Shown: piece after piece, positions 28,790 through 52,744 of the stretch
Position numbering within the stretch: position 1 is the first letter of the stretch
Layout of the letters: every line of letters starts with the position of its first letter
DNA from: Paracoccaceae bacterium
GTDB lineage: Bacteria; Pseudomonadota; Alphaproteobacteria; Rhodobacterales; Rhodobacteraceae
Length of the DNA: 64,000 bases
Reading direction: 5' to 3'
Assembly: GCA_965116235.1 (NCBI GenBank)
Contig: OZ220496.1
Location: 2,782,693 to 2,846,692 of the forward strand
The notes under the pieces: model-generated
What the model was told of the DNA's origin: nothing
Databases searched by the model: none
The model's input: the letters and a program-made list of their open reading frames with translations, nothing else
Translations under genes and position numbers: made by a program

Positions 28790-29757
28790 CGCCTGTAAAT
28801 TGCATGGCGTTGGGTCCCAACAGGTCTGGACTGTTTCCGACTTGGAACCTTGCCTGCCATTCACCGATCGATCTGGCCATTGGCTGTAATGCCATGGATC
28901 TGACTCCGGGAGCAATGTCGGACCCTTGATTTCGATACTGGCTTGATCATTGATCTCCCGATTCGACGGAATGGGATCACCGAGACGCCGGCTTAGGGAA
29001 GGGAAGTCAACGTGACACGCTGCGGGGCTAAAGGTCAATCGGGAAAATGCACCGACAATGGTGCTCCTGCATGCGAAAGAGGAGCTTGACTGGAACGACA
29101 ATCAAGGAGTGGGATGTCATCGTGACGCGCTTTTAGGCCGCCCTTCCAAAGCTGAATTTCTGCAACCTTGCAAGAACAGGCACTATTCTCACTTTGGGAT
29201 GGTGTCCGGCTGGACCGGTTTCAGGTGATGCGCACGCCCGGAAGCTTCAAGGCCTGCTCCTGCAGCAGGATCGGTGCCATCATCAGTTTGGCAAGGCGCA
29301 GAAACGGCTGTCTGTCGGGTGGCCGCCTTGGGCTGGGCTTGGGACAATGGGTCGCCGGTGCCACGCCCGATGATCACGCCGGAAGGCCGTCATCATGGAA
29401 CAGAAGGGTTTGCCCGGTCGTGCGCATGAGCCATTCGGCATATCGGGCCAGCATGGCACAGCCAAACATGGATGCGTCCACGACAAGCCCGATGATGAGA
29501 CCGGCCGCACCTTCCGATCCATGGTGTTCAGGCTTCCGACAGCGTGACCCCCACGAGGCCGTCGCTTGTTGGACCGTACGGTCTCATCGGTCATGTCCCG
29601 GCCGGCTGAGCCGACACGACCGGAGGCCGTCCAAGGTTGCTTCGGCGCGATGTTGACAGCCCTTTGACACCCGGTGAGTCCACTGGCTCGCGTCTGAAGG
29701 TCACGTGCGGTTTCATCCTGTATCGCTCCTGACGGGGGCCGGCCGCCGGCCTGCGCC

Positions 29758-29776
29758 GATGCCGACAACCGGCATC
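29758..29776 (-). terminator. hairpin just downstream of the left autotransporter stop
   Basis: GATGCCG-N5-CGGCATC stem-loop 33 nt after the stop, followed by a GGCCGGCGGCCGGCC palindrome. There is no U-tract, so function is uncertain. It is conserved in the right arm. Confidence 0.35.
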
Positions 29777-29808
29777 GCTCCGCAACCCGACGGCCTTCCG
29801 TCTCCCAA

Positions 29809-32800
29809 TCAGAAGCGGAAGGTCACGGACAGACCGCCCCCAAAGTCGGTGTTGTCGCTCCCCGCCGTCGCATAAAAGGCATCCCCCGTCAGTAGCGTCG
29901 TGTCGTGGCCGCCCAGAGACATCGCCCCGCCCACGCCCAGACGCACCCAGGTCGGCTTCACCTCCGTCGCCAGCCGGGTGCCGGCCACCATCACCGCATG
30001 CTTGGACGAGAACTCATGCTCCAGATCCAAAGACGCATACAGCCGACCGTCGGTATCCTCCGGACCCAACTCGGCCAAGACACCTACACGACCCTGAACG
30101 CTCTGCTCCTTGTCCGGAGCAACCCGGCCGGCTCCATCGATCCGGGTCGGTTCGTCAAAGGCGTCCATGTCCACCGATGACCAAGACAGACCCCCACGCG
30201 GAATCACGGTCATGCCTCCCATACTCATCGGCTGACCGACTTCCACTCCGAGCGCCAGACCGTTGCCACCTCCCTTGGAGGTGATCGCACCGACCGCACT
30301 GTTGGCCGACACCATCGTGATATCAAAGAACCGGGTGTAGCTCAGCTGGCCGTCCACATACAGCCCGCGGTCGTCCGTCCAGGTCAGGGACAGGCCCACA
30401 CCGGTGCCGCTCGCTTCCATGGTGCCACCCTTCTTGACGGTGGCCTCACTTTGCCGGTAGTGGGCACTCACGCCCAGCACCAGACGCTCATCGGTCGGCA
30501 CTTCCAGACCCGCCTCAAAGTCGGTCTGCTTGACATCCCATGCCAGAGACTGACGCCAAAAGTCCTGGGCCGTCGTCGATGTATCGGCCATCCGCTCACC
30601 GTCACGGACCGCCAGACGTACCCAGACACCCGTGCGGGAACTTGGAGTTACCACATGCTCGCCCTTGCTGCTCTCGACCATGACCTCCTCGTCGCCGGTG
30701 GTCCGGCGGGGCACCGCCATGCGCGTACTGTAGGGCGTCAGGTCCACCAGACCCAGAAGCACCGACGGCAACACCTCATACAGACGCGCCCGATGGCTGT
30801 ACAGACGCAAGACCGGAGCCGACGGATCATCCTCGAATTGGTAACCATCCGTAATCTTCTCGAGCTGGGCCTTGAACACCTGTTCGTACACACCCATCCG
30901 GTCGCCACGGCGGTAGACATGATCATTCACCTTCAGATCATTCTCGGTTCCGGATGCACTGCGGGTCTTGAACTCGAGTGTGGAACGGGTCCTCTCCTTG
31001 TTCTCTTCTTCTATATCCTGGGCCGCGGACACGCGGTTCAGGATCTTGCCTTCGACATGACCCACGACACCCGCCTCATCCTTCTCCAGAATCACCGCGA
31101 CAACTTCGGCCTGGTCATCGTCAGCCTTGGGATCCACCTCGATGGCCACGCCGGATTTCGCCTTGACATGCGCGCGAGGACCAATCACGATCGTGCCACC
31201 CCCCTTCTCGCTCGCGCCTAGCGCGACTATGCTGCTTCTCCGGATGCGCACGCCGGCACATATGTTCTGGCCCGTCTTCGTGTTGGTGCATGCCGAGTCA
31301 CCACCCATGACCGTACCGCGGATGGTAAGAGCAAACTTGTCGACGGCCGAGCCGCGCTTGTCGACCATGATGCCATAATGGTCCGCCGTGATCACGCTGC
31401 CTTCCTTGGTCTCGACCGTGGCCGTGGCACCAGCGTAAGCACGGGCACGGATGCCAACCTTCTTCGCCGTGATGCGGCTGCCCGCCTCCATCGTGATCGA
31501 TACGGCCTTGTAGCCTTGCGCATGAATGCCCGCAGGTGATGTGCCCGTAGTAGGTTCTGCACCCGCCGTGATCTTGCCTCTGTGGGTGATCGTGATGGTA
31601 CCGGTGCGGTCGGGGTCAAGGTAAACCGCAATCCCATATCCGCTTGCCACAATCTCGCTGTCCGCTCCTGTCTTAATCACGACGTCGCCCCCGGCTGTCG
31701 TTTCGCCAGGATCTAGGAGTCGTACATACATCCCAAAATTGTCTTCGGTGAGTATACTCCCCAAGTGCCTGATCATGATTTTGCCTTTGGCGTCTGCGGT
31801 TAGATCCATATTGATGCCGTACTCCTGCGCCTTTATGCTGCTGCCTGGCATCGTTGTGACCGTGACGTCTCGGATGCCTTTCGCTTCAATACCATGTCCA
31901 GCCGCATCGATCAGGCCTCCGTGGGTGATCCTGATGTTGCCGATGCGTTTATTTCCGCCAATCTCGGCCTTGATCCCATACGGGTAGACTCCATTGTCAC
32001 TGGCTGATTGGTTTCGGTTCGTCTTGATCTTGCTGCCCGCTCCCGTCTCAATCACGATGTCGCCCTTGATCCCGCTCCCGCTTGTGGGATCCTCCAGGGA
32101 TGCACTTATTCCATGCGTGGCATATATTGCGCCTTGGTGCGTGATCGTGATTGTGCCGACACCCGCGGGCTTTATAGCTGCGACAATGCCATACGCACTG
32201 ATGGGGTTGCCATCCGCGCCGAGCGTCACTCCGGGATCAACCGTAATCGTGATACCACCCTTGGCATGCTGCTCGACATCCATGCCATAGCCCTGCTCAT
32301 AATTCTCGCCGCTGTCATGCGCAAGAATGGAACCGCCCTTGAGATGGACCGTGATCGGTATCGTCGTGCCCGCGGCGGCTTCGTCAGTGCGAACGTGGAT
32401 GCCTTTTTTGGGACCGCGCGGCACCGGCAGCGGCGGCGTCGCCTTCGACACGTCAATTGTGGCGCTCGACTCAAGATGGATGCCCCCGGTCACCCCGTCC
32501 TTTTTATTGGCCTTGTCTTCGGCTTCCCCCGTGTGTTTAAGGTCAATGCCCAATAATCCCCCAGCACCCGAGGTAGTGATGATGCTCTTTTCGTCCAGTA
32601 CGAGCTTGAGCAAGCCGGTTCCGGCACGCTCCATGCCTATGCCCGTGCCCTGCGAATAGGTCGCGATACGGCCTGTGACCACAACATCACGGGCGCCACC
32701 AGTTGTGGCGGTAATGCTGAGGGCACCGCCGGTGAGGTGTTTTGCGGTTGGGCTTTCGCCAAGCACGGCCCCGTTCAAGTCCAGTGTCAGACCTCCGGTC

Positions 32801-33081
32801 AGTCCGCGGCATGAAATCACGTCCGTGTATGGCTCGTCACTGCTCAGGGCAAACTTGGGCAGCGTTCCATCTGTACCCGTGCATGTTTGGGCCGCAACCG
32901 AATGTGGTACCGCCAGGAGCATCCCCAGCCCGACAAACAGCGCTCCAATTGTCGAAGGCCCGAAGCCCGGTCCACGGAGGGACCCAACCGAGAGATCATC
33001 TACCCCCCCCCTGCTCGTGTTCATGGGCACGCACGGGCCGGCCCCGTCCGCCCAGATCGAAATCAATCCTGTCATGATCAT
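29809..33081 (-). CDS. autotransporter outer membrane protein (large repetitive beta-helix-type passenger plus C-terminal beta-barrel); reading frame intact
   Basis: Signal-like STIGALFVGLGMLLAVPHSVAAQ. Long Gly/Thr/Ile-rich passenger with recurring units such as ...GTITITH.G.I.A...GI.A... C-terminal about 280 aa barrel region ending GGGLSVTFRF (terminal aromatic). Start taken as the ATG at 33081 (MIMTGL) with GAGAAGGGAA upstream. The 33216 TTG start in the track reads through the promoter region. Confidence 0.85.
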   Translation of the reverse strand: MIMTGLISIWADGAGPCVPMNTSRGGVDDLSVGSLRGPGFGPSTIGALFVGLGMLLAVPHSVAAQTCTGTDGTLPKFALSSDEPYTDVISCRGLTGGLTLDLNGAVLGESPTAKHLTGGALSITATTGGARDVVVTGRIATYSQGTGIGMERAGTGLLKLVLDEKSIITTSGAGGLLGIDLKHTGEAEDKANKKDGVTGGIHLESSATIDVSKATPPLPVPRGPKKGIHVRTDEAAAGTTIPITVHLKGGSILAHDSGENYEQGYGMDVEQHAKGGITITVDPGVTLGADGNPISAYGIVAAIKPAGVGTITITHQGAIYATHGISASLEDPTSGSGIKGDIVIETGAGSKIKTNRNQSASDNGVYPYGIKAEIGGNKRIGNIRITHGGLIDAAGHGIEAKGIRDVTVTTMPGSSIKAQEYGINMDLTADAKGKIMIRHLGSILTEDNFGMYVRLLDPGETTAGGDVVIKTGADSEIVASGYGIAVYLDPDRTGTITITHRGKITAGAEPTTGTSPAGIHAQGYKAVSITMEAGSRITAKKVGIRARAYAGATATVETKEGSVITADHYGIMVDKRGSAVDKFALTIRGTVMGGDSACTNTKTGQNICAGVRIRRSSIVALGASEKGGGTIVIGPRAHVKAKSGVAIEVDPKADDDQAEVVAVILEKDEAGVVGHVEGKILNRVSAAQDIEEENKERTRSTLEFKTRSASGTENDLKVNDHVYRRGDRMGVYEQVFKAQLEKITDGYQFEDDPSAPVLRLYSHRARLYEVLPSVLLGLVDLTPYSTRMAVPRRTTGDEEVMVESSKGEHVVTPSSRTGVWVRLAVRDGERMADTSTTAQDFWRQSLAWDVKQTDFEAGLEVPTDERLVLGVSAHYRQSEATVKKGGTMEASGTGVGLSLTWTDDRGLYVDGQLSYTRFFDITMVSANSAVGAITSKGGGNGLALGVEVGQPMSMGGMTVIPRGGLSWSSVDMDAFDEPTRIDGAGRVAPDKEQSVQGRVGVLAELGPEDTDGRLYASLDLEHEFSSKHAVMVAGTRLATEVKPTWVRLGVGGAMSLGGHDTTLLTGDAFYATAGSDNTDFGGGLSVTFRF
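33003..33011 (-). repeat. G9 homopolymer (C9 on the + strand) inside codons 23-26 of the left autotransporter
   Basis: AGC AGG GGG GGG GTA reads ...NTSRGGVDDL and is in frame. Confidence 0.9.
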
Positions 33082-33121: not shown

Positions 33122-33150
33122 AATAAATGCCCCCCCCCCAAGATTTGCAA
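33122..33150 (-). promoter_or_regulatory. putative sigma70-type promoter of the left autotransporter, with a G10 tract in the spacer
   Basis: On the gene strand: TTGCAA-ATCTT-G10-CA-TTTATT, a 17 nt spacer, about 40 nt upstream of the ATG. The tract is 33130-33139 (C10 on the + strand). The -35/-10 assignment is by eye only. Confidence 0.45.
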
Positions 33151-33186: not shown

Positions 33187-33204
33187 TGTCGCATGCATGC
33201 GACA
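33187..33204. promoter_or_regulatory. 18 bp perfect palindrome TGTCGCATGCATGCGACA upstream of the left autotransporter promoter
   Basis: Self-complementary over all 18 nt. It lies 36 nt upstream of the putative -35 and about 30 nt after the stop of the Cys-rich ORF. It could be an operator or a terminator stem. Confidence 0.3.
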
Positions 33205-33234
33205 CACCGGCTTCAACGATGTGTTGTGGCTTAC

Positions 33235-33786
33235 TCAGGGGAAAGCCTCGGACGGTGCACGATTGATCACGACTATATCAAGGGTTGAGCCTTTTCTGGT
33301 GTTCCCGTATCCCGACATGTGTGGCCCTGTTGGGCCGTTTTGGTGGATGGGGTCATGCGTCGGGCTGGGATGACGGCAAAAAGTGACAGCCCTGTACCGC
33401 CGTTGCCGGATATTCCTGAGGTCACCGAAGTCCGGAGGCGGACACACGCTCCCGCAGGAGGCGGGGTTGTCGCCATGGCAACAGCTGCAATGCTCCCAGC
33501 CGCTGGCGGGGCTGTATTTGGTCAACGTGGCACGACACGGCAACGGATCGGCAAAACGCCAAACCGGTATGCGGCCGAACCGGGCAATGATGGCTTCCAA
33601 GCCCAAGGCAACGGCACCTTGCCGACCAGCTTTCAGGTTGGGGATGACACTCGGTGGCGGATTGCGATTGACAAGAGGCGATTTGCGGAATTGCCGAGCA
33701 CTTTTGTCCCAAACGGATTTCCGCTGCTTGATGGTAGGTCGGGAGGCATGATCCGGCATGGTCGCGATACGCATGAACACACGCAT
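33235..33786 (-). CDS. hypothetical Cys-rich protein conserved in both repeat arms (intact copy)
   Basis: 183 aa ORF with GWEHCSCCHGDNPASCGSVCPPP. Across the first ~57 codons the two arms differ at 8 synonymous third positions against 3 replacements, which supports this frame. The C-terminal half is much more divergent. I recognise no family. Confidence 0.4.
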   Translation of the reverse strand: MRVFMRIATMPDHASRPTIKQRKSVWDKSARQFRKSPLVNRNPPPSVIPNLKAGRQGAVALGLEAIIARFGRIPVWRFADPLPCRATLTKYSPASGWEHCSCCHGDNPASCGSVCPPPDFGDLRNIRQRRYRAVTFCRHPSPTHDPIHQNGPTGPHMSGYGNTRKGSTLDIVVINRAPSEAFP

Positions 33787-34022
33787 AAGGATTGCAAACG
33801 ACCGTGTTGGTGCTCGTTGACGAGGAATTGTGTGTACATGGATAGTTTGTGCAAAAAAAATGAAGTTAAAACCTTTGCAAACCGGCCCGTGTGATTGTGG
33901 GTTGTGGGGGAGGATTAATCACAAAGGCTCAAATCGGTTCGGAAGTTGGGTTTAGATCCTCGCTACAGAGGTGATTCGCGCGGTCCTGCGTTGGCGGAAG
34001 TCAAGTGCTTTGACGGTCCTGG

Positions 34023-35246
34023 CTACGCTTTTTCGATTATGTAGTCCATGAGCGACGGGATACCCGGTTCCCAGCAGTCGGCTGCCATGCCGTCCCAGAT
34101 ATATCCCTTGTGCCGCATGAAGCGCCATCGTGCCATCGTCTGTTCCGGCCCTAGACCATCCAGTACTCGCTTCAGCTGGTTCGTATCCACCCGACCGTCG
34201 TGACTGCGAAAGGTCAGCGCTACATCCAGAGCCACTTTCAACCCATCAGGCAACTCCATGAATTCCCAGCGACGGCGAGCATAATAACGCTGCCGCGTGT
34301 CATACGCGGCAGCGTTAGCCGTACGACACTCGGTTGGACCGAAATGCTTGCTCTCGGCCTGTATCACCGCATCAAAGGCAACGGACCCGTAAAGCTGCAA
34401 GAAATAGGGATAGCCATCCGTCATGCCAACAAGATCTGCAATTGCCGTTGCATCACACGATATGCCCACAGCGGCTAGCGGGCGGGCTACAACATCGGTC
34501 GCGGCAATGGTGTCAAGACAGCCTAGGGGGAGATCAATGCCACGATCCCAGAAACTGGCGCCAGCCTGATCAAGGCTGTCCACCAAGCCCGGCGTACCGG
34601 CCAGTACCAGAGCGATGGGCATGCGTTCGCCGGCTTCCAGTACCGCATTAAGCAAAACACGCAGGGCATCCGGTTCTACCATGTGGGCCTCATCAAGGGT
34701 AATCAGCAGCGGACCAGCTAAGCGCAGGAGAGACTCCGATTCGGTGCGATCCGAACGCTCTGGCAAGGTCAGGGTTACCGACCCGAGACCCATCGTGATG
34801 TGAGCCTCCTTTGGCTGCATTGACTCAATATCACGCATCAGCTCCGTATGCTGGATGCGAGAGCGTTTTAGCCAGCTCCAGACCCGATCCCAAGCGGTAT
34901 CAAGCGGCTTGGTCGCATCCGATGTGCTGCCGGTTATCTCAATCGTTGGTCGAAAGAGAGTGCGATGCATACCCTCCTTCGTTGTGACCGCATTGGCTGA
35001 CAAGGGCAACAGGATATCCGGCTCCGGTCGCGAGCGTATAGTCTGGCGCAGAGCATTGAGGAGCACCGTCTTGCCTGTTCCACGTGGCCCGTAAATATAC
35101 AGGAAATCGGGTCCAGTTCGGTCTGCAATGGTCGTCAAAGGCCGCAACTGATGGACCGTTCGTGCCAGCACCGAATCAATCGCCGGTCGCTGGCCCATAA
35201 AGGGGGGTGGCTTGGCAATGCCCGGAACAAACGGGTTGTCGGTCAT
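34023..35246 (-). CDS. AAA/ORC-like (Arch_ATPase-type) ATP-binding protein
   Basis: NPFVPGIAKPPPFMGQRPAI lead-in, Walker A YIYGPRGTGKTVLL and Walker B-like LLITLDEAH. The start is uncertain: ATG at 35246 or 35297, while the longest ORF reaches 35423. Confidence 0.7.
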   Translation of the reverse strand: MTDNPFVPGIAKPPPFMGQRPAIDSVLARTVHQLRPLTTIADRTGPDFLYIYGPRGTGKTVLLNALRQTIRSRPEPDILLPLSANAVTTKEGMHRTLFRPTIEITGSTSDATKPLDTAWDRVWSWLKRSRIQHTELMRDIESMQPKEAHITMGLGSVTLTLPERSDRTESESLLRLAGPLLITLDEAHMVEPDALRVLLNAVLEAGERMPIALVLAGTPGLVDSLDQAGASFWDRGIDLPLGCLDTIAATDVVARPLAAVGISCDATAIADLVGMTDGYPYFLQLYGSVAFDAVIQAESKHFGPTECRTANAAAYDTRQRYYARRRWEFMELPDGLKVALDVALTFRSHDGRVDTNQLKRVLDGLGPEQTMARWRFMRHKGYIWDGMAADCWEPGIPSLMDYIIEKA

Positions 35247-35781
35247 CGCATTTGCGTCGGTCGGTCCTGCCACTGATTCCCTCTTCCCGCTCGTCATCTG
35301 TCGTACCAATATAGACAAACACCCATTCAAACGCAAGATAACAGCACGCCAGCCATGCGAGCCATCCAAGCTGGAATCAGCCGGTCCTGTTCGGAAGATT
35401 ACAGCTATCTGGTTTGGCCTCATGCGCCATGAGTCAGGTAAAATGACTGGCGTCCCAGTGATGTGCGCCAGCGTTCAGCATAACGATATCCAAGAACATG
35501 CTGACATGATACAACCAGCCATCAGCCGATCGGTTCGCAACAGGGCAGAAACGACTGGCCGGAGATCAGAAGCATAAACCGTTCATTGGGCCAAGCGTCG
35601 GAAGCCGATGAATCATCCGAAGCTTTGCCCCCTTCGCCCAACTTCGGAAGTTTGGCACACCAGACCAGCATGGCAACTGCCAAGCGGAAAATCACTAGAA
35701 TTAAGCAAGAGGCTGTCAGTGATGTGAGTGTTAGTAGCGGTTGAAAATGCATTCCAGAAAGGATGGACAGTTTGCAATTCC

Positions 35782-37083
35782 CTAATGTCTCCCGCTGACC
35801 GGCGCGTAGAGATTGTCATAACTTGAAGCAATCAAGCGCGGACAGTGCTTGTGGATTCGCGAAAGCAGAAGCGTTCTCATCGAGTGATAAAACGAATTGT
35901 GATGTCGATTGACGAATGCTTGAAGATTGCTGCCTCTTACAACTTGGCCAATTCTCCTCTGCCTTGATTTCTTGAACTTGTCAAAGGCCTCCTTTGGGGT
36001 GGTTGACCCCGCTATGGCTGAAGCCAGCACCCATCCGTCCTCGATGGCCATGTTCCCTCCTTGGGCCAGAAACGGCAATAATGGATGAAGAGCATCACCG
36101 ATCAGGCAAGTGTTCTCGACAGACCAAACCGGATGCACTCGGCTAGGACGGAGATCGTAATATCGTTGACCAGTGCTGGCCTCAGCGATATCAATGGTCG
36201 ATTGAAACCGATCCAGCAACGCCGAAAGCTCGTCAAGGGCCTTGCTTGCAGGTTTTGACGCCGGAACAACGGCGACAAGATTCAGAAATCTTCCCTTGTT
36301 GATCGGATACGCCACTGTGTGACAGGTTCTCGTATAGGTGAGAGTAACCTGTGCAAGGCTAAGGCTGCCATGATCCGGTATCTCATTCATGGGAACAACC
36401 ATGCGCAAGGCAGAGTATGAAGACCTTGAATTTCTGTGTCCTGGATTGACAAGCCGGTTCACCCGCGAAGCCACCCCGTCCGCTCCCACGAGAATCTGGG
36501 GAAAATGACAGGTGCCATTCGCCCGTCTAACACCGTACCGATCACCTTCTAGCGGAAATTCAACAACATTTTCGTTAAAATGGACGACAACCCCCAGATT
36601 GCGAGCATGCTCGATGAGCACATCAAGTAACTCCCCCCGCTCCAAGGTGAGGTATCCCAAATTCCATTCGTCGCGAAATTTGCCGACATCCAGACGAAAC
36701 AAGTCATGTACGACCGCCGAATCTCTGACCACAATGTGATTGATAACGTTCGCAATTGCAGCAAGCTGGTCGTTGAGACCAAGTCGGGCGAGCAGATACG
36801 AGGCATTCGGGGTAATCTGAATACCCATGCCGCCAGTCTGTGGAGAACTCCTTTTTTCAATCACTACGGATTTAATTCCTAACCTGGCCAGGGAAATGGC
36901 CAGTGTCAAACCGGCAAGCCCACAGCCTACAATGACGATGTCATGCAATGTTCTGCTCACAACATTAGATCCATAAATTCCAGTACTGCAGACCGCATGA
37001 AGATAACGACACAGGTCACAACACCCAGATAATCGACACCACCCAGACTCAACCGAAGATAAATCAACATTCAAGCCATTCAT
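35782..37083 (-). CDS. FAD-dependent monooxygenase (salicylate/aromatic hydroxylase-like, UbiH/PheA family)
   Basis: IVIVGCGLAGLTLA dinucleotide fold, DGVASRVN, and LIGDALHPLLPFLAQGGNMAIEDG. The ~45 aa preceding the GxGxxG is unusual, so an internal GTG start is possible. Confidence 0.85.
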   Translation of the reverse strand: MNGLNVDLSSVESGWCRLSGCCDLCRYLHAVCSTGIYGSNVVSRTLHDIVIVGCGLAGLTLAISLARLGIKSVVIEKRSSPQTGGMGIQITPNASYLLARLGLNDQLAAIANVINHIVVRDSAVVHDLFRLDVGKFRDEWNLGYLTLERGELLDVLIEHARNLGVVVHFNENVVEFPLEGDRYGVRRANGTCHFPQILVGADGVASRVNRLVNPGHRNSRSSYSALRMVVPMNEIPDHGSLSLAQVTLTYTRTCHTVAYPINKGRFLNLVAVVPASKPASKALDELSALLDRFQSTIDIAEASTGQRYYDLRPSRVHPVWSVENTCLIGDALHPLLPFLAQGGNMAIEDGWVLASAIAGSTTPKEAFDKFKKSRQRRIGQVVRGSNLQAFVNRHHNSFYHSMRTLLLSRIHKHCPRLIASSYDNLYAPVSGRH

Positions 37084-37441
37084 ATTTGCTCGACACGAGA
37101 GGTTGCACCGCTGCTAACACTTTACGTGATGAAAACAATCTTTGACAATGTCTCCAGTTTTTGAATAACCGCTCATGTACGTTATGATTTAGTCGTCAGC
37201 AATTGTTAGAGACAATCGGGGGTCGGATTTCGTGCTTGTTATCGGTGGAATCTTGGTGGGAATCGCTCTGGGGCTACGCAAGGCAAAAAAGAGACAGGGC
37301 TCAAGCTGGGACTTCGTTCATCATGCTGTTGTATATGCCATAGCTTGGGGTCTTCTGGCATGGATGCTAACCTTGATCCTCGGTTGGTACGATGTGTACA
37401 TGTAGTCTGCACGACCGAAACTTCGTTGACAGGAATCGCGG

Positions 37442-38383: not shown

Positions 38384-38438
38384 TCAAGCACTTGCACTGG
38401 CGTAAGGACATGGCGACTCATTATTCGGAATCGATAGC

Positions 38439-39518: not shown

Positions 39519-39523
39519 GCACC

Positions 39524-40768: not shown

Positions 40769-40815
40769 CTACCCAGAAGACTACTTGACGAACTTGTACG
40801 CCAGGAGCAGATCGC

Positions 40816-40840
40816 GGCGGCACAAATCTTGTGTGCCGCC
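40816..40840 (+). terminator. stem-loop after the enolase-superfamily gene
   Basis: GGCGGCACA-AATCTTG-TGTGCCGCC, a 9 bp perfect stem 48 nt after the stop. No clear U-tract. Confidence 0.4.
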
Positions 40841-42431: not shown

Positions 42432-42970
42432 AAAACCGGCAAGTTGCCAAGTTGAGCCGAAGCCTTCAAGAGCTGTTCGACGTATTCGGTTTCAGAACGG
42501 CGGCACGCAATGTACCACAGAGATTCTTCAACGAGCCAGAAGGCCGCCGCAATCTGACCCAATCGGGTACGTCTGAACATGCCTTTCATAAATTTTTCTG
42601 GTGAGCAATCAATTGGTGTATTCTTGGCCAAAATGTCACGAATGTGATCTCCGGTCAACTCAATTACAGACCTTGAGTTACTGACTTCACAAATCAAAAC
42701 ACTTGCGTTCTGAAGCGACTTTTCCAGATCCAACACAAGGTGTTCAACATTCTCAGGTGGAGCAAAAATCAGCAACTCATCGGGAGACATCCATGCCATT
42801 GACAGTTCGTCGGCAGTAGTTATCTTGCAGCGGTCTGGCAACTGAAGGCCCACAGTAGCTTCAATTTGATCTCTGACAAACTTTGAATTCAGATCACCAC
42901 GAAACAGGATCATTCCTGCTTCCTCAAGCACCCTGAAGGCGAACAGAGCTGAGGCTGACGCTTTAGCCAT
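42413..42970 (-). CDS. soxG: sarcosine oxidase subunit gamma
   Basis: 185 aa ORF immediately after soxA, with its start overlapping the soxA stop by 8 nt. Position and size fit the gamma subunit. Confidence 0.8.
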   Translation of the reverse strand: MAKASASALFAFRVLEEAGMILFRGDLNSKFVRDQIEATVGLQLPDRCKITTADELSMAWMSPDELLIFAPPENVEHLVLDLEKSLQNASVLICEVSNSRSVIELTGDHIRDILAKNTPIDCSPEKFMKGMFRRTRLGQIAAAFWLVEESLWYIACRRSETEYVEQLLKASAQLGNLPVFYSESD

Positions 42971-45968: not shown

Positions 45969-46026
45969 CGGTCCATGTCCAAATTGGGCAATGCTTCTGC
46001 GATCAGGTTTTGAATCATTCGGTCAC

Positions 46027-46344
46027 CTACAACTCAAAATCCTGTCTTCGACTTCGAATGGCCTGAATTATCTGGGCCGGCGGCTTTACGGTCTGGGCCA
46101 GGTATGTACCAAAAACCTCGATCGTGTTTGTACACCGGGCAACGTGAAACCACTTGCCGCATCCCATTGCATGCCTCCATCGCTCGAACAGGACACCCTT
46201 GGGATTTTCTCGCAAAAACAGATACTTTTCAAAATCGTCATCAGTGGATTCGGGCCCCATGCGAACAAGATGGGCTTCCCCATAATAGCTCAGCTCGGTT
46301 TCATCGGCTTCAACCCCGCAGTACGGACATTTCAGTTTCAGCAC
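46027..46344 (-). CDS. soxD: sarcosine oxidase subunit delta
   Basis: 105 aa, LKLKCPYCG...E..Y..E, the zinc-ribbon-type SoxD N-terminus. GTG start with an AAGGAGG SD. Confidence 0.9.
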   Translation of the reverse strand: MLKLKCPYCGVEADETELSYYGEAHLVRMGPESTDDDFEKYLFLRENPKGVLFERWRHAMGCGKWFHVARCTNTIEVFGTYLAQTVKPPAQIIQAIRSRRQDFEL

Positions 46345-46390
46345 GACATCCCCTCCTTTTCAAACTTCGACTTCTCTTGTCGCCCGACGT

Positions 46391-47638
46391 TCAGTGTGCC
46401 ACTCCTGCAGCAACACTTTCATCAATGAAGCGACCTTCCTTGAATCGGTCAAGTGTAAATGCCGCTGCCAACGGTCCGGGTTCACCCTTGGCAAGCAAGT
46501 CGGCCATTGCCCAGCCTGAACCTGGTATGGACTTGAAGCCACCCGTACCCCAGCCGCAATTGATAAAGAGATTGCGGATCGGAGTTTTCGAAATGATCGG
46601 GGACCGGTCTCCGGTCATGTCAACAATGCCTCCCCATTGTCGCAGTATTTTCAATCGTGAGAAAACGGGGAACAATTCAACGAGTGCGCGGACAGTATTT
46701 TCAATATGGACAAAGGAACCGCGCTGTGTGTAGTTATTATAGCTGTCAGCACCGCCTCCAACAACAAGTTCACCCTTGTCCGACTGACTGACATAGCCGT
46801 GGACCGTGTTCGCCATGACGACAATGTCCAGACATGGCTTTATAGGTTCTGACACCAAAGCTTGCAGTGCAACGGATTCAATGGGCAAGCGAAAACCGGC
46901 CATCTCAGCCAGCAAACTTGAGTACCCGGCTACGACCATGCCAACCTTTCCAGCCATAATCGCTCCCCTGTTGGTTTGCAGGGCAATGTCCCCGTTCGCC
47001 GCAGGATCAATTCCTGTTACCTCACACTGCTGGATGATATCCATGCCCATGTCAGAACATGCCCTGGCATATCCCCACGCGACCGCATCATGTCTGGCGG
47101 TTCCTCCTCGGGGTTGCCACAAGGCTCCTAGGATCGGATAGCGCGGACCTTCGATATTGATAATGTTGCAGAGTTCGCGCACTCGCTGGGGAGTGATATA
47201 TTCTGTTTTGACTCCCTGAATGATGTTGGCATTGTTGATCCGTTGGAATCCCCTAGCCTCATGGTGGGTTTGCGCAAGGCTCATGACACCCCGCGGGCTG
47301 AACATGATGTTGTAGTTCAAATCCTGGCTTAGGGTTTCGTAGAGAGATCGGGACTTCTCGTATATCGCTGCCGATGAGTCCTGAAGATAATTGGATCGAA
47401 TGATGGTCGTGTTTCGTCCGGTATTGCCACCCCCAAGCCATCCCTTCTCGACAATGGCAATATTCTTGATGTCATGATTTTTTCCAAGGTAATAGGCCGA
47501 AGCCAGCCCGTGGCCTCCAGCACCGACAATGACAACATCATATCGTTTCTTCAGTTCTGGCGACCGCCACGCTCGCTCCCAGCCCTGATGATAGTTCAGC
47601 GCCTCTTTCACCAATCCAAATGCGGAGTATCTTTTCAT
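46391..47638 (-). CDS. soxB: sarcosine oxidase subunit beta
   Basis: MKRYSAFGL..., VVIVGAGGHGLASA FAD fold, and a C-terminal GWGTGGFK. The ATG at 47638 is preferred over the TTG at 47653. Confidence 0.95.
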   Translation of the reverse strand: MKRYSAFGLVKEALNYHQGWERAWRSPELKKRYDVVIVGAGGHGLASAYYLGKNHDIKNIAIVEKGWLGGGNTGRNTTIIRSNYLQDSSAAIYEKSRSLYETLSQDLNYNIMFSPRGVMSLAQTHHEARGFQRINNANIIQGVKTEYITPQRVRELCNIINIEGPRYPILGALWQPRGGTARHDAVAWGYARACSDMGMDIIQQCEVTGIDPAANGDIALQTNRGAIMAGKVGMVVAGYSSLLAEMAGFRLPIESVALQALVSEPIKPCLDIVVMANTVHGYVSQSDKGELVVGGGADSYNNYTQRGSFVHIENTVRALVELFPVFSRLKILRQWGGIVDMTGDRSPIISKTPIRNLFINCGWGTGGFKSIPGSGWAMADLLAKGEPGPLAAAFTLDRFKEGRFIDESVAAGVAH

Positions 47639-47889
47639 CCTAACGTCATGCAACTTCTACCCGCCTCACAGCCCCGTACATGTAATGGAATTTCTGCGTA
47701 TTGTTAGAATGGTGCCGAGATATAAGCCTCGGCTTCCGAACCGATTTAAGCTTTTGTGATTGATCACAACCCATCACACGGGTCGATTTGAAAAGGTTTG
47801 ATCTTCATTTTTCTGCACACACTATCCATACACAGACAATTCCTCGTCAACAAGCACCAACACGGTCGTTTGCAATCATACGTGTGTTC

Positions 47890-48428
47890 ATGCGTATCGC
47901 GACCATGCCGGATCATGACTCCCGGCCCACCATCAAGCAGCGAAAATCCGTTTGGGACAAAGATGCCCGGCAATTCCGCAAATCGCCTCTTGTCAATCGC
48001 AACCCGCCACCGAGCGTCATCACCAACCTGAAAGCCGGCCGGCAAGGTCCGCTGCCTTGCGCTTGGAAGCCATCATTGCCCGGTTCGGCCGCATACCGGT
48101 TTGACGTTTTGCCGATCGGTTGCCGTGTCGTGCCATGTTGACCGAATACAACCCCGCCAGCGGCTGGGAGCATTGTAGCTGCGGCCATGGCGAAGACACC
48201 CACCCCTGCGGGAGCGTGTGTCCGCCTCCGGACTTCGGCGACCTCAGGGATATCCGGCAACGGCGGTACAGCGCTGTCACTTTTTGCCGTCATCCCAGCC
48301 CGGCACATGACCCCATCCACCAACACGACCCAACAGGGCCACACATGGCGGGATGCGGGAATGCCGAAAAAGGCTCAACCCTTAGTGCAGTCGTGATCAC
48401 TCGTGCGCCGTCCGAGGCTTTCCCCTGA
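47890..48428 (+). pseudogene. second copy of the Cys-rich arm ORF, split by a 1-nt deletion
   Basis: Homologous to 33235-33786 throughout, but CAAGGTGCCGTTGCC in the left copy is CAAGGTCCGCTGCC here (about 48046-48060). The frame therefore shifts and ends at 48141, and homology resumes in the track ORF 48120-48428. Confidence 0.45.
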
Positions 48429-48458
48429 GTAAGCCACAACACATCGTTGAAGCCGGGG

Positions 48459-48476
48459 TGTCGCAGGCATGCGACA
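48459..48476. promoter_or_regulatory. imperfect copy of the arm palindrome (TGTCGCAGGCATGCGACA)
   Basis: Same position relative to the promoter as in the left arm, with one mismatch from perfect dyad symmetry. Confidence 0.25.
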
Positions 48477-48512: not shown

Positions 48513-48540
48513 TTGCAAATCTTGGGGGGGGGCATTTAAT
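48513..48540 (+). promoter_or_regulatory. putative sigma70-type promoter of the right autotransporter, with a G9 tract in the spacer
   Basis: TTGCAA-ATCTT-G9-CA-TTTAAT, a 16 nt spacer. The tract is 48524-48532. AGGAG lies 5 nt before the ATG at 48586. Confidence 0.45.
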
Positions 48541-48585
48541 GTCAACGAGTTCTATTTTCTATTTTTGGATAGCAAGACAGGAGTA

Positions 48586-51521
48586 ATGATGATGAAATTG
48601 ACTTCACTTTGGGGCCGACGCGGCCATCCGGCCCCTGCCTGTGAACGCGTCGGGGGGGGGTAGATGACCTTGCGACCCGCCCCCGCGTCGGGTCGGCATT
48701 CAGGCTTGCGACGATTGGAGCGCTGCTTGTCGGGCTCGGGATGCTTGTCGCCTCGCCGCATCCCTCAGCGGCCCAAGGCACCTGCTCCGTAAGTGACGGG
48801 ACGAATTCGGAAACGGTTCCGGATGGCAATCCGCCGGAGGTTACCAAGACCGGCCAGTACGACGAGCAACTTGATTGCAAGGGACTCGCCAACGGCCTGA
48901 AGCTGACGCTGGATGACTTCAAGGTCGGCACAAGCGACGACCCAGCTGATGAAAGAGGTCTTATCGTTAACGCGGATGGTGCCGAAGGCGACGATGTCAC
49001 GGTCATGGGCAAAGTAGTCATCCATTCCGATAAGTCCGGCATAAACCTGTCACGGGACGGGACGGGATTGCTCAAGTTGCAGTTGGATCCGGAAAGCGAA
49101 ATCAATATCGCGTTGTCCGATGATGATGATGCGCGCATGAGAGGGAACAGTGGCATTTTTCTCGAGCACTCGGGGGAAGCCGATACGGCTCTTGATGGCG
49201 GCATCCACCTCGTGTCGAGTGCCAAGATTGACGTGTCGAAGTCGCTGTACGTCGGCAAGGCAGGCATCGCTGTTAGGACCGGGGAAACAGAATCGGACAC
49301 AGCCGAGGGCACGACGATACCGATCACGATCCATCTCAAGGGCGGTTTCATTCGTGCGGAGGACACTGACAGTAAGAAACAGTCGGGAAATGGCATCAGA
49401 GTCATTCAGTACGCCAAGGGCAAAGTCGACATCACGGTGGACCCGGGGGTGATGATCGGCATGGAAGGCAAATCCATCGGCCGGGCTGGCATTGATGCTA
49501 CGATTTTTCCCAAGGGCGACGGCAACCTCGTGATCAAGCACTCAGGGCATATATACGCCGACGAGTATGGAATATATGCATCCTTAGCAGATCCTGGCGA
49601 CACGCCAGCCGGGGGCGACATCACGATTGAGACGGGAGCGGACAGCGTGATTGACACAAGCGGGTATGGGATTGCGGCTTACCTTGAAGAAGACCGCACC
49701 GGGACCATCAAGATCAACCACTATGGCAAGATCAAGGCGGGTGCCCAAGCGGGTATTCATGCGCAAGGTGACAAGGCCATATCGATCACGATGGAGGCGG
49801 GCAGCCGCATCACGGCGACGGAGATTGGCCTTCGTGCCCTCGCTTACCTTGGCGCCACGGCCACGGTCGAGACCAAGGAAGGCAGCGTGATCACGGCGGA
49901 CCATCATGGCGTTCAGGTTGACCAAAGAAGCCCGAAGCAAGGAGACCCGGCCATAACAAAGTTTACTGTCACCATCCGCGGCACGGTCATGGGTGGTGCC
50001 ACCGAATACGCCGGTGTGCACATCTTTAAGAGGGATCTGCCGCCGGATGGAACTCAGGGAGATTCTGGGTATTGGGCAGGAGATCCGACGCCGAGCGGAG
50101 TGGGCGGCACGATCGTGATCGGTCCCCGGGCGCATGTGAGCAGTTTCCATGCCCAGCCCGATACTGAATCCGCGAAGAAGGTGGCCATCAAGGTGGATGC
50201 CGGTGCGAGCACCGCCACCGCTCCGGTGACCATCATCCTGGAAAAGGACGAGGCGGGTGTTGTGGGTCATGTTGAAGGCCAGATCCTGAACCTCGCGGCG
50301 ACAGGAAACAGCAAGGGAAAAACGGACGAACCACCCCGCTCGACACTCGAGTTCAAGGTGTCGGGAAGTAAGACGGCTCTGGAACCGGGTGCCCCCGATG
50401 CGATCATTTATCGTCGTGGCCAACGGATGGGCGTATATGAACAGGTGTTCAAGGCTAAGCTCGAGGAGCTTGACGATGATAAGGGTTACCAGTTCAAGGA
50501 TGTTGCGTCGGCTCCGGTCTTGCGTCTGTACAGCCATCGGGCGCGTCTGTATGAGGTGGTGCCGTCGGTGCTTCTGGGTCTGGTGGAGCTGACGCCCTAC
50601 AGCACGCGCATGGCCATGCCCCGCCGGAGCACCGGCAACGAGGAGGTCATGGTCGAGAGCAGCAAGGGGGAGCATGTGGCGGTGCCGGGTGCCCGCACGG
50701 GTGTCTGGGTGCGTCTGGCGGTTCGCGATGGGGAACGGATGGCCGATACATCGACGACCGCAACGGACTTCTGGCGTCAGTCTCTGGCGTGGGATGTGAA
50801 GCAGACCGGCTTTGAGGCGGGTCTGGAGGTGCCGACCGATGAGCGTCTGGTGCTGGGCGTGAGTGCCCACTACCGGCAGAGCGAGGCCACCGTCAGGAAT
50901 GGTGGCACCATGGAAGCGAGCGGCACCGGTGTGGGCGTGTCCCTGACCTGGACGGACGACAGCGGGCTGTATGTGGACGGCCAGTTGAGCTACACCCGGT
51001 TCTTTGATATCACGATGGTGTCGGCCAACGGTGCGGTTGGTGCGATCACCTCCACGGGTGGCGGCACCGGTCTGGCGTTCGGTGTGGAAGTCGGCCAGCC
51101 GATGAGCATGGGGGGCATGACCGTGATTCCGCGTGGGGGTCTGTCCTGGTCATCGGTGGACATGGATGCCTTTGACGAACCGGCCAGGATCGATGGAGCC
51201 GGCCGGGTTGCTCCGGACAAGGAGCAGAGCGTTCAGGGTCGTGTGGGCGTGCTGGCTGAGCTGGGTTCCGGGGAGGCGGACGGTCGGCTGTATGCATCGC
51301 TGGATCTGGAGCATGAGTTCTCGTCCAAGCGTGCGGTGATGGTAGCCGGCACCCGGCTGACGACCGAGGTGAAGCCGACCTGGGTGCGTCTGGGCGTCGG
51401 CGGGGCGATGTCTCTGGGCGGCCACGACACGACGCTACTGACGGGGGATGCCTTTTATGCGACGGCGGGGAGCGACAACACCGACTTTGGGGGTGGCGTG
51501 TCCCTGACCTTCCGCTTCTGA
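48586..51521 (+). CDS. autotransporter outer membrane protein, paralog of 29809-33081; frame broken at a G9 tract (phase-OFF as sequenced)
   Basis: ATG ATG ATG AAA... (MMMKLTSLWGRRGHPAPACERVGGG) hits TAG at 48661. With one more G the frame runs GGGVDDLATRPRVGSAFRLATIGALLVGLGMLVASPHPSAAQG into the 926 aa track ORF (48741-51521). That continuation aligns with the left copy (RGGVDDLSVGSLRGPGFGPSTIGALFVGLGMLLAV). The protein ends GGGVSLTFRF. Confidence 0.8.
48652..48660 (+). repeat. G9 homopolymer in the 5' coding region of the right autotransporter
   Basis: Read directly: GTC GGG GGG GGG TAG. The main ORF is in the frame reached with G10 (or G7/G13). Confidence 0.9.
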
Positions 51522-51553
51522 TCGGGAGACGGAAGGCCGTCGGGTTGCGTAGC

Positions 51554-51572
51554 GATGCCGGTTGTCGGCATC
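51554..51572 (+). terminator. hairpin downstream of the right autotransporter stop
   Basis: GATGCCG-GTTGT-CGGCATC 33 nt after the stop. Same element as in the left arm. Confidence 0.35.
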
Positions 51573-52744
51573 GGCGCAGGCCGGCGGCCGGCCCCCGTCA
51601 GGAGCGATACAGGATGAAACCGCACGTGACCTTCAGACGCGAGCCAGTGGACTCACCGGGTGTCAAAGGGCTGTCAACATCGCGCCGAGGCAACCTTGGA
51701 CGGCCTCCGGTCGTGTCGCCTTCGCCGGCCGGGACATGGCCGATGAGACCGTCCGGTCCAACAAGCGACGGCCTCGTGGGGATCACGCTGTCGGAAACCT
51801 GAACACCGTGGATCGGAAGGTGCGGCGGGTCAATCATCATCGGGCTTGTCGTGGACGCATCCATGTTCGGCTGTGCCATGCGGACCCGATATGCCGAATG
51901 GCTCATGCGCACGACCGGGCAATCCCACCTGTTCCATGATGACGGCCTTCTGGCGTGATCATCGGTCGGGGCACCGGCGACCCCATTGTCCAAGCCCGAC
52001 CCAAGGCGACCACCTGGCATGAATCCGACAGACGGCCGTTTCTGCGCCTTGCCGAACTGACGTTGACACCGCCCCTGTTGCAGGAGCGGGCCTTGGAGCT
52101 TCTTGGCGTATGTATTGCCTAAAACCCGTTCAGCTTGACGTCATCCCAAAGTGAAGCTTGTACTTGTTCTGGCAAGGTTGCAAAAAAACCAGTTCCGGAA
52201 GTTCAGTGTAACGGTGGACAGGAATATTTAGTTCGGACGGGATTATATGCCTGATGGTCTACGGATTGCGTCTAAAATCAACGGACGACCCGGCTTGACG
52301 GAATTGGACCGTACTTTACGTTCTTCAATATCTACCAAACAGGAGATCGGAGCAGTGAAATGCGTATGGAAGAGAGACAAACCAGTACGTCATCAGCACT
52401 GGGAACACGTTAACCCTCCTCTTCAAATAATGTGCGAAATCCACTCCAAGCGCTCGTTTAAGTTGAGGCTACCTTACCGTTGTGATTGTTCCAATCCTTA
52501 TTCGGAGAATATGTCTGACCTGCTAGGTGCCTCTTCGTTTCTCAAGACAATCCAGTGTGGTCCGTACGAAAGCAACTCTGTCAGACTTTTAAGGTTGCAA
52601 CCTTCAGTTCTTTAGCAATATACAGATATGTGATGCCTCAGGGTACGTTTGAGCGCAGGAGTTTGTTGGCACTGCTTACTTCATGTAGAGCACTCTGGCA
52701 ATGGATATTGGTAGTCGTCATGGATTCGGCTGAAGTGGACTGAT

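Follow-up and report, generated by a model that had tools for sequence, protein, structure and literature searches.

The two inverted arms in the window, by which we mean the whole 64-kb stretch of DNA analysed here, are probably paired contingency loci: autotransporter cassettes that were inserted independently, that would vary in phase through slipped-strand mispairing, and whose ends would have been homogenised by gene conversion. Poly-G phase variation is the likely functional core of the arms, and their inverted geometry is probably a by-product.

Inverted arms and their autotransporter cassettes

An earlier note on this DNA had described kilobase-scale inverted arms and called for a self-alignment. 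BLASTN of the window against itself agreed with its coordinates within a few bases: the arms 29157-33945 and 47733-52186 are reverse complements of each other. The inverted matches joined 29157-31785 to 52186-49521 (82.9% over 2723 columns), 32918-33945 to 48745-47733 (85.6% over 1034) and 32032-32376 to 49646-49302 (69.7%), and a repeat search of the window reported the arm pair as 1348 nt at 93%. In a 100-nt sliding comparison, the arms were 91-99% identical in the beta-barrel and 3' flank, 88-96% in the signal peptide and the ~800 nt upstream of it (the 5' leader), and 43-70%, with indels, in the passenger, where a ~300-nt block was present in the left arm only. The longest exact runs shared by the arms were 138 and 95 nt. 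The GC content of the arms (56-65%) was above that of the surroundings. Repeats of this size can confuse assemblers, and nothing more specific suggests that the duplication is a collapsed or mis-joined repeat. However, the arms differ by 3-50% along their length, with several indels, and each has unique junctions to genes ordered as in independent genomes; an assembly artefact is extremely improbable.

We found 13 close homologs, of which at least 12 lie on a single 3,253,087-bp contig of a related genome, and more copies at the unrelated loci L001, L002 and L083. The leader and tail boundaries of the window arms are common to L001 and L002, and L083 holds a second closely spaced inverted pair. 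The cassette is lineage-restricted, 4.4-4.8 kb in size, and runs from a terminal repeat through a leader, a 16-nt palindrome, a promoter-like region with a poly-G spacer, the autotransporter with a 5' coding poly-G tract, a hairpin and a tail to the other terminal repeat. An IS lies within the L001 leader, and other leaders have deletions. The parts of the window copies are as follows.

29138..29154, minus strand: left 3' terminal inverted repeat, a degenerate remnant that aligns with AACTTCCGAAACCGATTT; similarity among copies stops here
29155..29808, minus strand: left non-coding 3' tail, 63% GC; also conserved in L001, L002 and the right arm, with indel lengths not divisible by 3
29731-29806, minus strand: left hairpin, strong, directly past the stop codon (dG -62.5 kcal/mol, z = -3.5)
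29809..33081, minus strand: left autotransporter gene (phase ON), whose 1090 codons stay in frame across the G tract, with the PF03797 and TIGR01414 barrel
33003..33011, minus strand: left poly-G tract in the coding region, G9; it codes for R-G-G before the hydrophobic core of the putative signal peptide, and TAGATGA comes next
33130..33139, minus strand: left promoter-region poly-G tract, G10, between the -35-like TTGCAA (33145-33150) and the -10-like CATTTATT
33188..33203, no strand: left palindrome GTCGCATGCATGCGAC, perfect, 16 nt, ~40 nt upstream of TTGCAA; a candidate regulator site
33204..33930, minus strand: left non-coding leader, with a non-conserved 183-aa 'Cys-rich' ORF
33931..33947, minus strand: left 5' terminal inverted repeat AACTTCCGAACCGATTT, perfect
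33948..47730, no strand: interior, 13.8 kb of native chromosome in ancestral orientation, outside the cassettes
47731..47747, plus strand: right 5' terminal inverted repeat, 2 mismatches
47748..48459, plus strand: right non-coding leader
48460..48475, no strand: right palindrome copy, 1 mismatch
48524..48532, plus strand: right promoter-region poly-G tract, G9, after TTGCAA at 48513-48518
48586..48663, plus strand: right gene frame start (phase OFF), an ATG with a Shine-Dalgarno-like AGGAG, 22 codons, G9 (48652-48660), then TAG
48661..51521, plus strand: right autotransporter body (passenger and beta-barrel, PF03797), intact but out of frame with its own start codon
51522..52188, plus strand: right non-coding tail, with a hairpin at 51524-51599
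52189..52206, plus strand: right 3' terminal inverted repeat CCAGTTCCGGAAGTTCAG, degenerate

Both arms encode a PF03797 protein (E = 7e-30 and 2e-30), and both genes are transcribed outward; paralogous autotransporter modules pointing away from each other are what the earlier note had reported. PF03797 together with TIGR01414 (4.5e-27) identifies a type Va autotransporter with a C-terminal 12-stranded barrel, which the AF2 model renders at low confidence; the C-terminal residues are ...TFRF. By inspection only, a putative signal peptide consists of the hydrophobic core STIGALFVGLGMLLAVP followed by SVAAQ|T, and it is conserved in the family alignment. GAGAAGGGA stands before the ATG of the left gene. 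Passenger residues 70-760 are all-beta in the AF2 model, with pLDDT mostly 80-95, and carry the motif I-T-I-T-H-x-G-x-I / G-I-x-A. For the passenger, Foldseek found nothing in the PDB at E <= 0.001; its only matches, all weak, were to Hap, IgA1 protease, EspC and Ag43. A PDB sequence search gave no match. We infer an adhesin-like function. With 34 clusters among 1.84 billion representatives, this type of passenger is very rare; it occurs in complete-genome-sized metagenome contigs, one of which has at least 12 copies.

No coding substitution pattern was found in any frame of the leader and tail. A 1-nt deletion breaks the frame of the 'Cys-rich' ORF in the right arm, a stop codon shortens it in L001, and in L002 it is deleted; the earlier claim that a small Cys-rich ORF is a shared part of the arms was not confirmed. 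The palindrome and the hairpin, also claimed for each arm, were both recovered. The palindrome (33188-33203 and 48460-48475; 0.02 expected by chance) sits in the most conserved block of the leader, and the post-stop hairpin has a dG of about -62 kcal/mol and z = -3.5. A generic promoter scan did not call the TTGCAA / CATTTAtt element, which is a putative promoter by its resemblance to consensus.

Insertion, probable mobility and probable exchange between copies

Pfam assigned to the interior an AAA_22 ATPase, an FAD monooxygenase, agmatinase, Zn-ADH, an enolase-superfamily gene, DgoK and SoxG/A/D/B, in agreement with the gene content listed before; xthA and ccmI form the outer flanks. The interior is colinear with a related locus, L006 (soxBDAG-dgoK-enolase-ADH-agmatinase-FAD monooxygenase). 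In at least 10 related Paracoccaceae genomes, dusA-ruvX-ccmI|soxBDAG...xthA-dgt-argS has the order and strand of the window, with no autotransporter at either junction and a ccmI-soxB gap of 105-350 nt in relatives. Because these genomes keep the gene order without autotransporters, each cassette is an insertion, and the interior has kept its orientation. Two cassettes would have entered this conserved neighbourhood independently and in opposite orientations, one between xthA and a variable metabolic block and the other between soxB and ccmI.

The description of the arms as repeats that bracket a metabolic segment was misleading: the segment is ancestral, and the cassettes are independent insertions of a family dispersed over unrelated loci. 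That the arms mobilised the segment as one unit, as a composite transposon or genomic island, is very improbable. There are inverted terminal modules around a cargo, and the GC content of the arms is raised. However, the interior is colinear with L006 and lies between the genes that also flank it in many arm-less relatives, its GC content (51.9%) equals that of the flanks, and a separate pair of terminal repeats bounds each arm. The earlier note had already set aside a composite transposon, and rightly, since transposase and integrase are absent and the interior is native DNA; two IS with transposase genes around foreign cargo were not found.

The cassette ends are ~18-nt imperfect terminal inverted repeats located at the exact ends of the unit. 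AACTTCCGAA(A)CCGATTT is found at both ends, and its 5' copy is perfect in the left window cassette and in L083b. The terminal repeats of L002 are significant (p < 0.001), and the 5' end of the left window cassette matches the 3' end of L002 at 18/18 positions with one gap. The 3' terminal repeat AACTTCCGAAACCGATTT occurs without mismatch in L002 and with 2 mismatches in L001; the 3' repeats of both window copies are degenerate and not significant on their own. A possible target-site duplication in direct orientation (CTAAA in the left window cassette, CTAA in L002) was seen in only 2 of 4 copies and was unclear in the right cassette and L001. Because terminal repeats bound the cassette and there is no transposase inside it, the cassette probably spread in the manner of a mobile insertion cassette, through a transposase supplied in trans. 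No autonomous element with matching ends was found in the window or the related loci examined, and a scan of JGI metagenomes for the terminal motif returned only scattered single matches. The IS in the L001 leader is no match either, as its ends differ from those of the cassette.

The similarity between copies is a mosaic. The left gene body is nearest to L001, a copy at another locus (81-99%), and the left leader and distal tail are nearest to the right arm (89-94% versus 73-88%). Synonymous divergence between the arms is 0.5-0.98 in the passenger and lower, 0.16-0.33, in the barrel. These patterns support the earlier proposal of gene conversion between copies. Gene conversion would keep the barrel, leader and tail alike across the family, and the putatively beta-helical passenger would diverge and gain or lose repeat modules.

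The same note had proposed the arms as substrates for inversion. Their exact runs of 138 and 95 nt exceed the minimal length for RecA recombination, and that part of the proposal stands. A working invertible segment, in which RecA flips the 13.8-kb interior and swaps passenger and barrel halves between the autotransporters, is nevertheless quite unlikely. The arms are inverted (1.35 kb at 93%), the mosaic shows that copies do recombine, and L083 holds another such pair. However, the interior has only been seen in the ancestral orientation, shared on both sides with the relatives, and no recombinase, invertase or integrase gene lies in or beside the region. Exchange within the genes would also leave both intact, with no obvious change in phenotype. 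Finally, close dispersed repeats would survive preferentially if inverted, because direct repeats would delete the interval; therefore, the arrangement would need no function as its explanation.

Poly-G tracts and reading frames

We observed five G/C runs of 9 or more in the window, four of them at homologous cassette positions, against a background of 5 such runs in ~1.6 Mb of related loci (~3 per Mb). Both tracts are present in all six copies examined. The coding tracts are G9, G9, G10, G11, G9 and G9, and the promoter tracts, in the same order of copies, are G10, G9, interrupted, G8, G9 and G10. A repeat tract thus lies in both the coding and the promoter region, and the length of the coding tract varies among copies and sets the ON or OFF frame. 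One copy is ON and five are OFF, each OFF copy being exactly one nucleotide from ON. The tract is the only defect in the OFF copies, which are otherwise uninterrupted ORFs of 900-1000 codons. In the right gene, no internal stop was found in 48661..51521, and changing G9 to G10 in silico gave a 978-codon ORF ending at 51521. In the 3.25-Mb genome, 8 of the 12 annotated N-termini read through RGG/GGG-VDDL and 4 begin after it. Distant homologs, some at an identity of only 32-40%, have the tract at the same place (G12 and G10 in L039, G21 in L204), and the N-terminus of 8 of 20 remote relatives contains a poly-Gly run. Four features had gone unnoticed in the earlier note: the pair of poly-G tracts in each arm, the frameshift of the right gene, the inverted repeats at the cassette ends and the dispersed multi-copy family.

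Slipped-strand mispairing in replication would change the length of the G tracts. In the coding tract (G9-G11, within the first ~25 codons and before the signal-peptide core), a change would shift the reading frame, and both wrong frames would halt immediately in the TAGATGA past the tract. In the promoter tract (G8-G10 between TTGCAA and CATTTAtt), a change would alter the spacing of the hexamers. In this assembly, the left gene is ON and the right gene OFF, one G from ON. Actual switching is suggested by the differences in tract length, with ON and OFF frames among the copies. Long-read assemblies err most often in homopolymer length, and single ON/OFF calls may therefore be mistaken.

Of the 6 copies, 5 are OFF, one leader contains an IS and others have deletions; some of the family may therefore be in decay instead of switching. 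That the G tracts are incidental throughout, with the right copy and most relatives being frameshifted pseudogenes and not reversible OFF states, is unlikely. The proportion of copies out of frame, the damaged leaders and the passenger dN/dS of 0.4-1.1 fit decay. However, the OFF copies are otherwise intact over 900-1000 codons and one nucleotide from ON, the barrel dN/dS is 0.04-0.4, the tract position is kept in homologs 32-40% identical, with G21 in one, and comparable tracts otherwise occur at only ~3 per Mb.

Beyond phase-variable, independently inserted cassettes, a wider reading is possible but doubtful. A non-autonomous mobile element would be spreading phase-variable adhesin genes around the chromosome of host-associated Paracoccaceae, with the leader and tail as homology 'handles' for passenger exchange among a dozen loci. 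This would be distributed antigenic variation combining transposition, gene conversion and dual (promoter and coding) poly-G switching, in which close inverted pairs are recombination hot spots.

Relation to known systems

Phase-variable surface-protein families are a hallmark of host-living bacteria that evade immunity or phage, and they are well documented in a few pathogens. If switching is real, the family would mark these bacteria as being under strong fluctuating surface selection, and it would offer a compact study system in which each genome has many genes and each gene two tracts. An autotransporter annotated as 'truncated' or 'frameshifted' in such a genome should be read as an OFF state and not as a pseudogene.

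A literature search returned no report of phase-variable autotransporter loci in Rhodobacterales/Paracoccaceae. Homopolymeric-tract phase variation is known in the autotransporter genes NalP and MspA of Neisseria meningitidis (PMC3723659), and Campylobacter autotransporter genes have phase-variable homopolymeric tracts (PMC7168839). As in those genes, a type V secretion gene has in its 5' coding region a G/C homopolymer whose length sets the frame, and ON and OFF lengths occur among copies. Unlike them, the cassette gene has a second tract in a promoter-like spacer and belongs to a family with at least a dozen paralogs per genome, its host is a member of the Paracoccaceae (Rhodobacterales), and switching is predicted from sequence.

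The chlamydial polymorphic membrane proteins (Pmp) are an autotransporter paralog family (PMC4488443). Like the Pmp family, the cassettes provide many autotransporter paralogs in a single genome; the C-terminal barrel is conserved, and the passengers, putatively beta-helical in the cassettes, vary and consist of short repeat motifs. Some Pmp members show poly-G phase variation. However, there is no detectable sequence relationship, the Pmp motif being GGAI/FxxN and not that of the cassette passenger, and the cassette copies have a conserved non-coding leader and tail and terminal inverted repeats.

Mobile insertion cassettes (MICs) are non-autonomous, with terminal inverted repeats and passenger genes, as in the Tn3-type MICs with TALE genes in Xanthomonas (PMC4337579); the qnrS2 MIC is another (PMC5444012). 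Like them, the autotransporter cassette is a discrete unit: its boundaries are the same at unrelated loci, its terminal inverted repeats are imperfect, and it carries a cargo gene but lacks a transposase. It differs in its ambiguous target-site duplication, in the decay of the 3' repeat in the two window copies, in that no matching autonomous element was found in the loci examined, and in that its movement is deduced.

The opa genes of Neisseria are dispersed outer-membrane protein paralogs, each of which switches independently via a repeat in the signal-peptide region and among which recombination makes mosaics. Opa proteins are small 8-stranded barrels, and their repeat is a pentamer (CTCTT). 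The cassettes share with opa the dispersed outer-membrane paralogs, the repeat in the putative signal-peptide coding region, through which each copy would switch by itself, and the mosaics among copies, but their repeat is a homopolymer and their proteins are ~1000-residue autotransporters.

The inverted arms and the DNA between them

We found that the window, aligned with itself by BLASTN, contains two main inverted matches, 29157-31785 with 52186-49521 (82.9% identity, 2723 columns) and 32918-33945 with 48745-47733 (85.6%, 1034 columns), and a third, weaker one inside the arms. A repeat search of the window returned a 1348-nt inverted arm pair at 93% identity. Thus, the kilobase-scale inverted repeat described in an earlier note from the sequence alone is real. 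As that note had it, each arm carries an autotransporter gene (PF03797) transcribed outward from the center, and the genes between the arms are those it had listed.

29157-33945, minus strand: left cassette (arm) with its autotransporter gene
between the cassettes: 13.8-kb interior
47733-52186, plus strand: right cassette (arm) with its autotransporter gene

A sliding comparison showed that arm identity is a mosaic: 91 to 99% in the 3' flank and C-terminal third of the gene, 43 to 70% with indels in the gene middle, where a ~300-nt block is present on the left only, and 88 to 96% in the signal-peptide region and ~800 nt upstream. The GC content of both arms is 56 to 65%, versus 50 to 52% in the interior and flanks.

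To the left of the arms lie argS-dgt-xthA and to the right ccmI-ruvX-dusA. A profile scan of genome contigs with SoxA, run for taxonomy and synteny, assigns the organism to Paracoccaceae, with 65 to 69% identity to its nearest relatives. At least 10 related Paracoccaceae genomes have dusA(+) ruvX(-) ccmI(-), then soxB soxD soxA soxG(+) ... xthA(-) dgt(+) argS(+), which is exactly the arrangement of order and strands seen along the minus strand of the window. The dgoK-enolase-ADH-agmatinase-FAD monooxygenase block also occurs, with its order unchanged, at the related locus L006. The ccmI-soxB spacing is 105 to 350 nt in the relatives versus 5.1 kb in the window, and their ccmI-soxB interval contains no autotransporter. 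By this spacing and the conserved order and strands, both cassettes are insertions, and the orientation of the 13.8-kb interior is the ancestral one. A composite transposon, in which the arms would mobilize the interior together, is therefore excluded, since the interior is syntenic ancestral DNA and comparison with the relatives makes the two cassettes separate insertions. The earlier note's statement that this is not a classical composite transposon is borne out by the ancestral interior and the arm-less relatives.

The same note regarded the arms as a substrate for inversion of the interior. Homologous inversion through the arms is possible, and their exact identical runs of 138 and 95 nt suffice mechanistically. 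However, there is no recombinase gene, the interior orientation is ancestral, and both genes would stay intact after an exchange inside them. The xthA-to-ccmI comparison that the note proposed recovered the ancestral order and no sign of a fixed inversion. Where copies of a dispersed repeat lie close together, mainly inverted pairs would be expected to survive, as direct repeats lead to deletion of the DNA between them.

Gene conversion between the copies, also suggested there, is supported by the pattern of nearest copies and by lower divergence in the barrel and flanks. For the body of the left gene, the best match is the cassette copy at another locus, L001 (81 to 99%); the left leader and distal tail match the right arm best (89 to 94% versus 73 to 88%). 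Synonymous divergence between the arms is 0.5 to 0.98 in the passenger and 0.16 to 0.33 in the barrel, and the non-coding flanks diverge even less than barrel synonymous sites; dN/dS is 0.4 to 1.1 and 0.04 to 0.4, respectively. Low divergence at the cassette ends and high divergence in the passenger indicate that copies within the genome are homogenized at their ends, with the passenger diverging. The GC peaks coincide with the most homogenized parts, which GC-biased conversion or foreign origin would fit. Overall, the earlier description was largely accurate, and the biology of interest is that of the cassettes, not of the bracket that they form.

We also observed several features beside the cassettes. 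Between the right cassette and ccmI, a ~540-nt stretch (52207-52744) with a 122-aa ORF (52247-52615) has no counterpart in the relatives' 105- to 350-nt ccmI-soxB spacers. An AAA_22/AAA_16 ATPase gene (34023-35423, minus strand) directly borders the left cassette on its inner side and could be detected at none of the 80 related loci; at L054 and L009, two related loci, an FAD-monooxygenase-like gene directly adjoins xthA. A paralog of the ATPase (45% identical) lies at 17045-18376 of L002, another cassette locus, 3.5 kb from the cassette there. The only database matches of the ATPase (PADLOC, NCBIfam), to mad8 and Hda, are weak and uninformative, so no link between ATPase and cassette emerged. 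Two tandem FtsH-like genes (60518-62104 and 62193-63848, minus strand; AAA plus Peptidase_M41, 528 and 551 aa) are direct duplicates of each other, ~72% identical in nucleotide sequence.

Anatomy and dispersal of the cassette

In gene sense, the cassette consists of the following elements.

5' terminal repeat: AACTTCCGAACCGATTT
leader: ~730 nt
palindrome: 16 nt, GTCGCATGCATGCGAC, inside the best-conserved leader block
promoter-like region: -35-like TTGCAA, poly-G tract, -10-like CATTTAtt
start region: Shine-Dalgarno-like sequence, ATG, ~22 codons, second poly-G tract, then TAGATGA
candidate signal peptide: core, then the ...AAQ|TC junction
passenger: repeat modules of the type ITITHxGxI / GIxA; the left copy has four of them, the right copy two
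barrel, then a long hairpin: dG about -62 kcal/mol, z = -3.5
tail: ~650 nt, then the inverted terminal repeat

Indels among copies in the leader and tail have lengths that are not multiples of three. In a six-frame test, both had stops in every frame and non-synonymous/synonymous ratios of 0.5 to 1.06; the true barrel frame, as a control, gave 0.23 to 0.31 without stops. Eight leader and tail ORFs had no Pfam matches. Rfam returned nothing at the gathering threshold across the window except two tRNAs outside the arms, and nothing at E <= 1 in the left arm. By these signatures, the leader and tail are non-coding. The small Cys-rich ORF that the earlier note placed in each arm is open in the left arm only. 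Because the Pfam and six-frame dN/dS tests were negative, we rejected both this ORF as a gene and the leader as a recognizable transposase remnant. Both leaders contain a promoter-like TTGACG-18-GATAGT, a consensus match only (33817-33846, plus strand; 47850-47821, minus strand). It faces out of the cassette 5' end, and in the right copy it aims at soxB, 80 nt past the cassette end.

The terminal motif is AACTTCCGAA(A)CCGATTT, and the 3' end is the inverted counterpart of the 5' repeat with one extra A. The 5' repeat is perfect in the left window copy and in copy b of the cassette locus L083 (11866-11882); the 3' repeat is perfect in L002, has 2 mismatches in L001, and is degenerate in both window copies. 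A direct repeat, CTAAA or CTAA, surrounds the unit in 2 of 4 copies. The cassette itself encodes no transposase, and a terminal-repeat search that included a motif scan of JGI metagenomes found no autonomous element with matching ends. With these ends, a direct repeat around some copies and no transposase of its own, the unit resembles a mobile insertion cassette and may be one.

The JGI scan gave at least 120 single hits, consistent with chance, and one unrelated repeated element of ~100 nt (L089, L091, L092, L110, L119, L126, L138, L174, L190, and L200, from contigs Ga0056133, Ga0056108, Ga0056135, and others). This element shares a 17-mer with the cassette terminal repeat and is otherwise dissimilar, so coincidence is probable. 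One locus, L202, has two motif copies, both pointing outward. The L001 leader is interrupted by an unrelated 1.4-kb IS (DDE_Tnp_1, 8028-9428); its terminal inverted repeat measures 17 nt, and 11 bp of the target, ACCTGGAAGCC, are duplicated. We rejected this IS as the cassette mobilizer, as neither its ends nor its duplication is related to the cassette ends.

Among 5.8 billion proteins searched, the autotransporter had no more than 13 close relatives. At least 12 share one 3,253,087-bp contig, where barrels are ~90% identical and passengers are variable and modular. A single ENA metagenome assembly supplied three further loci, L001, L002, and L083. Conservation in L001 and L002 extends to the whole unit (the gene with ~950 nt upstream of it and ~650 nt downstream), similarity ends where that of the window does, and the neighboring genes are unrelated. 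L083, too, has two inverted copies near each other, here convergent and separated by 4.6 kb (840-3734, plus strand; 8376-11078, minus strand); in copy a the distal leader and the tail are missing. Passengers of this type are rare, with only 34 clusters matching at E <= 1e-3 among 1.84 billion representatives. Three distant homologs (32 to 40% identity) occur in L039, a Paracoccaceae MAG contig (OZ220486.1, 63% GC), at 834-3809, 14152-16917, and 22478-22960; they surround the same dusA-ccmI-soxBDAG block as in the window, in a different lineage and with different insertion points. Two family autotransporters lie in tandem at 1-5874 of L204, a 3.01-Mb circular contig (ERZ24894574 ctg6925c). A barrel-domain profile scan of genome contigs found no relatives, and a family-alignment scan of JGI metagenomes and a distant-mode search of a plasmid collection no matches. 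When the AF2 model was compared with the PDB by Foldseek, nothing reached significance. We conclude that this is a new, lineage-restricted and apparently phase-variable autotransporter family in Paracoccaceae, of which the window holds an ON/OFF pair.

Poly-G tracts and the state of the reading frame

Five G/C runs of at least 9 occur in the window, four of them at homologous positions of the two cassettes; outside autotransporter genes, 1.6 Mb of related loci also contain five. The fifth run in the window, an intergenic G10 at 56853-56862 without an autotransporter link, lies between a fatty-acid-hydroxylase-family gene (55766-56788, plus strand) and an ORF (57007-57783, minus strand).

Poly-G tracts and frame state of six copies (ON, frame open through the coding tract); homopolymer lengths are error-prone in assemblies, and the calls rest on assembled tract lengths
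window left: coding G9, promoter G10; ON
window right: coding G9, promoter G9; OFF, ON with +1 G
L001: coding G10, promoter GGGGGAGGG (interrupted); OFF, ON with -1 G
L002: coding G11, promoter G8; OFF, ON with -1 G
L083a: coding G9, promoter G9; OFF, ON with +1 G
L083b: coding G9, promoter G10; OFF, ON with +1 G

Of the six, only the left window copy has a frame that stays open from the start codon. The frames of the remaining five stop at TAG or TGA directly after the tract, each one nucleotide from being open, and one extra G placed in the right gene in silico gave 978 uninterrupted codons. On the 3.25-Mb contig, RGG/GGG-VDDL is read through in 8 of 12 annotated proteins, and the remaining 4 start downstream of it. 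The two complete L039 homologs start MTP-G12 and MSAASA-G10 (tracts in codons 3 to 9), and the second gene of the L204 pair, 40% identical, has G21 at 3073-3093 (codons ~25 to 31). With tracts in relatives this distant, the trait is old. Among remote relatives, 8 of 20 have an N-terminal poly-Gly run, and in 11 of 20 the annotated start is at or after the signal-peptide core.

The tract architecture is that of a slipped-strand contingency locus, with switching predicted from the tracts. The Neisseria NalP/MspA and Campylobacter autotransporters have such tracts (PMC3723659, PMC7168839). Mobile insertion cassettes (PMC4337579, PMC5444012) have, like the unit described here, terminal repeats and no transposase. 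The predicted mechanism is of a known kind; less usual are the dual tracts and the packaging in a putative mobile cassette.
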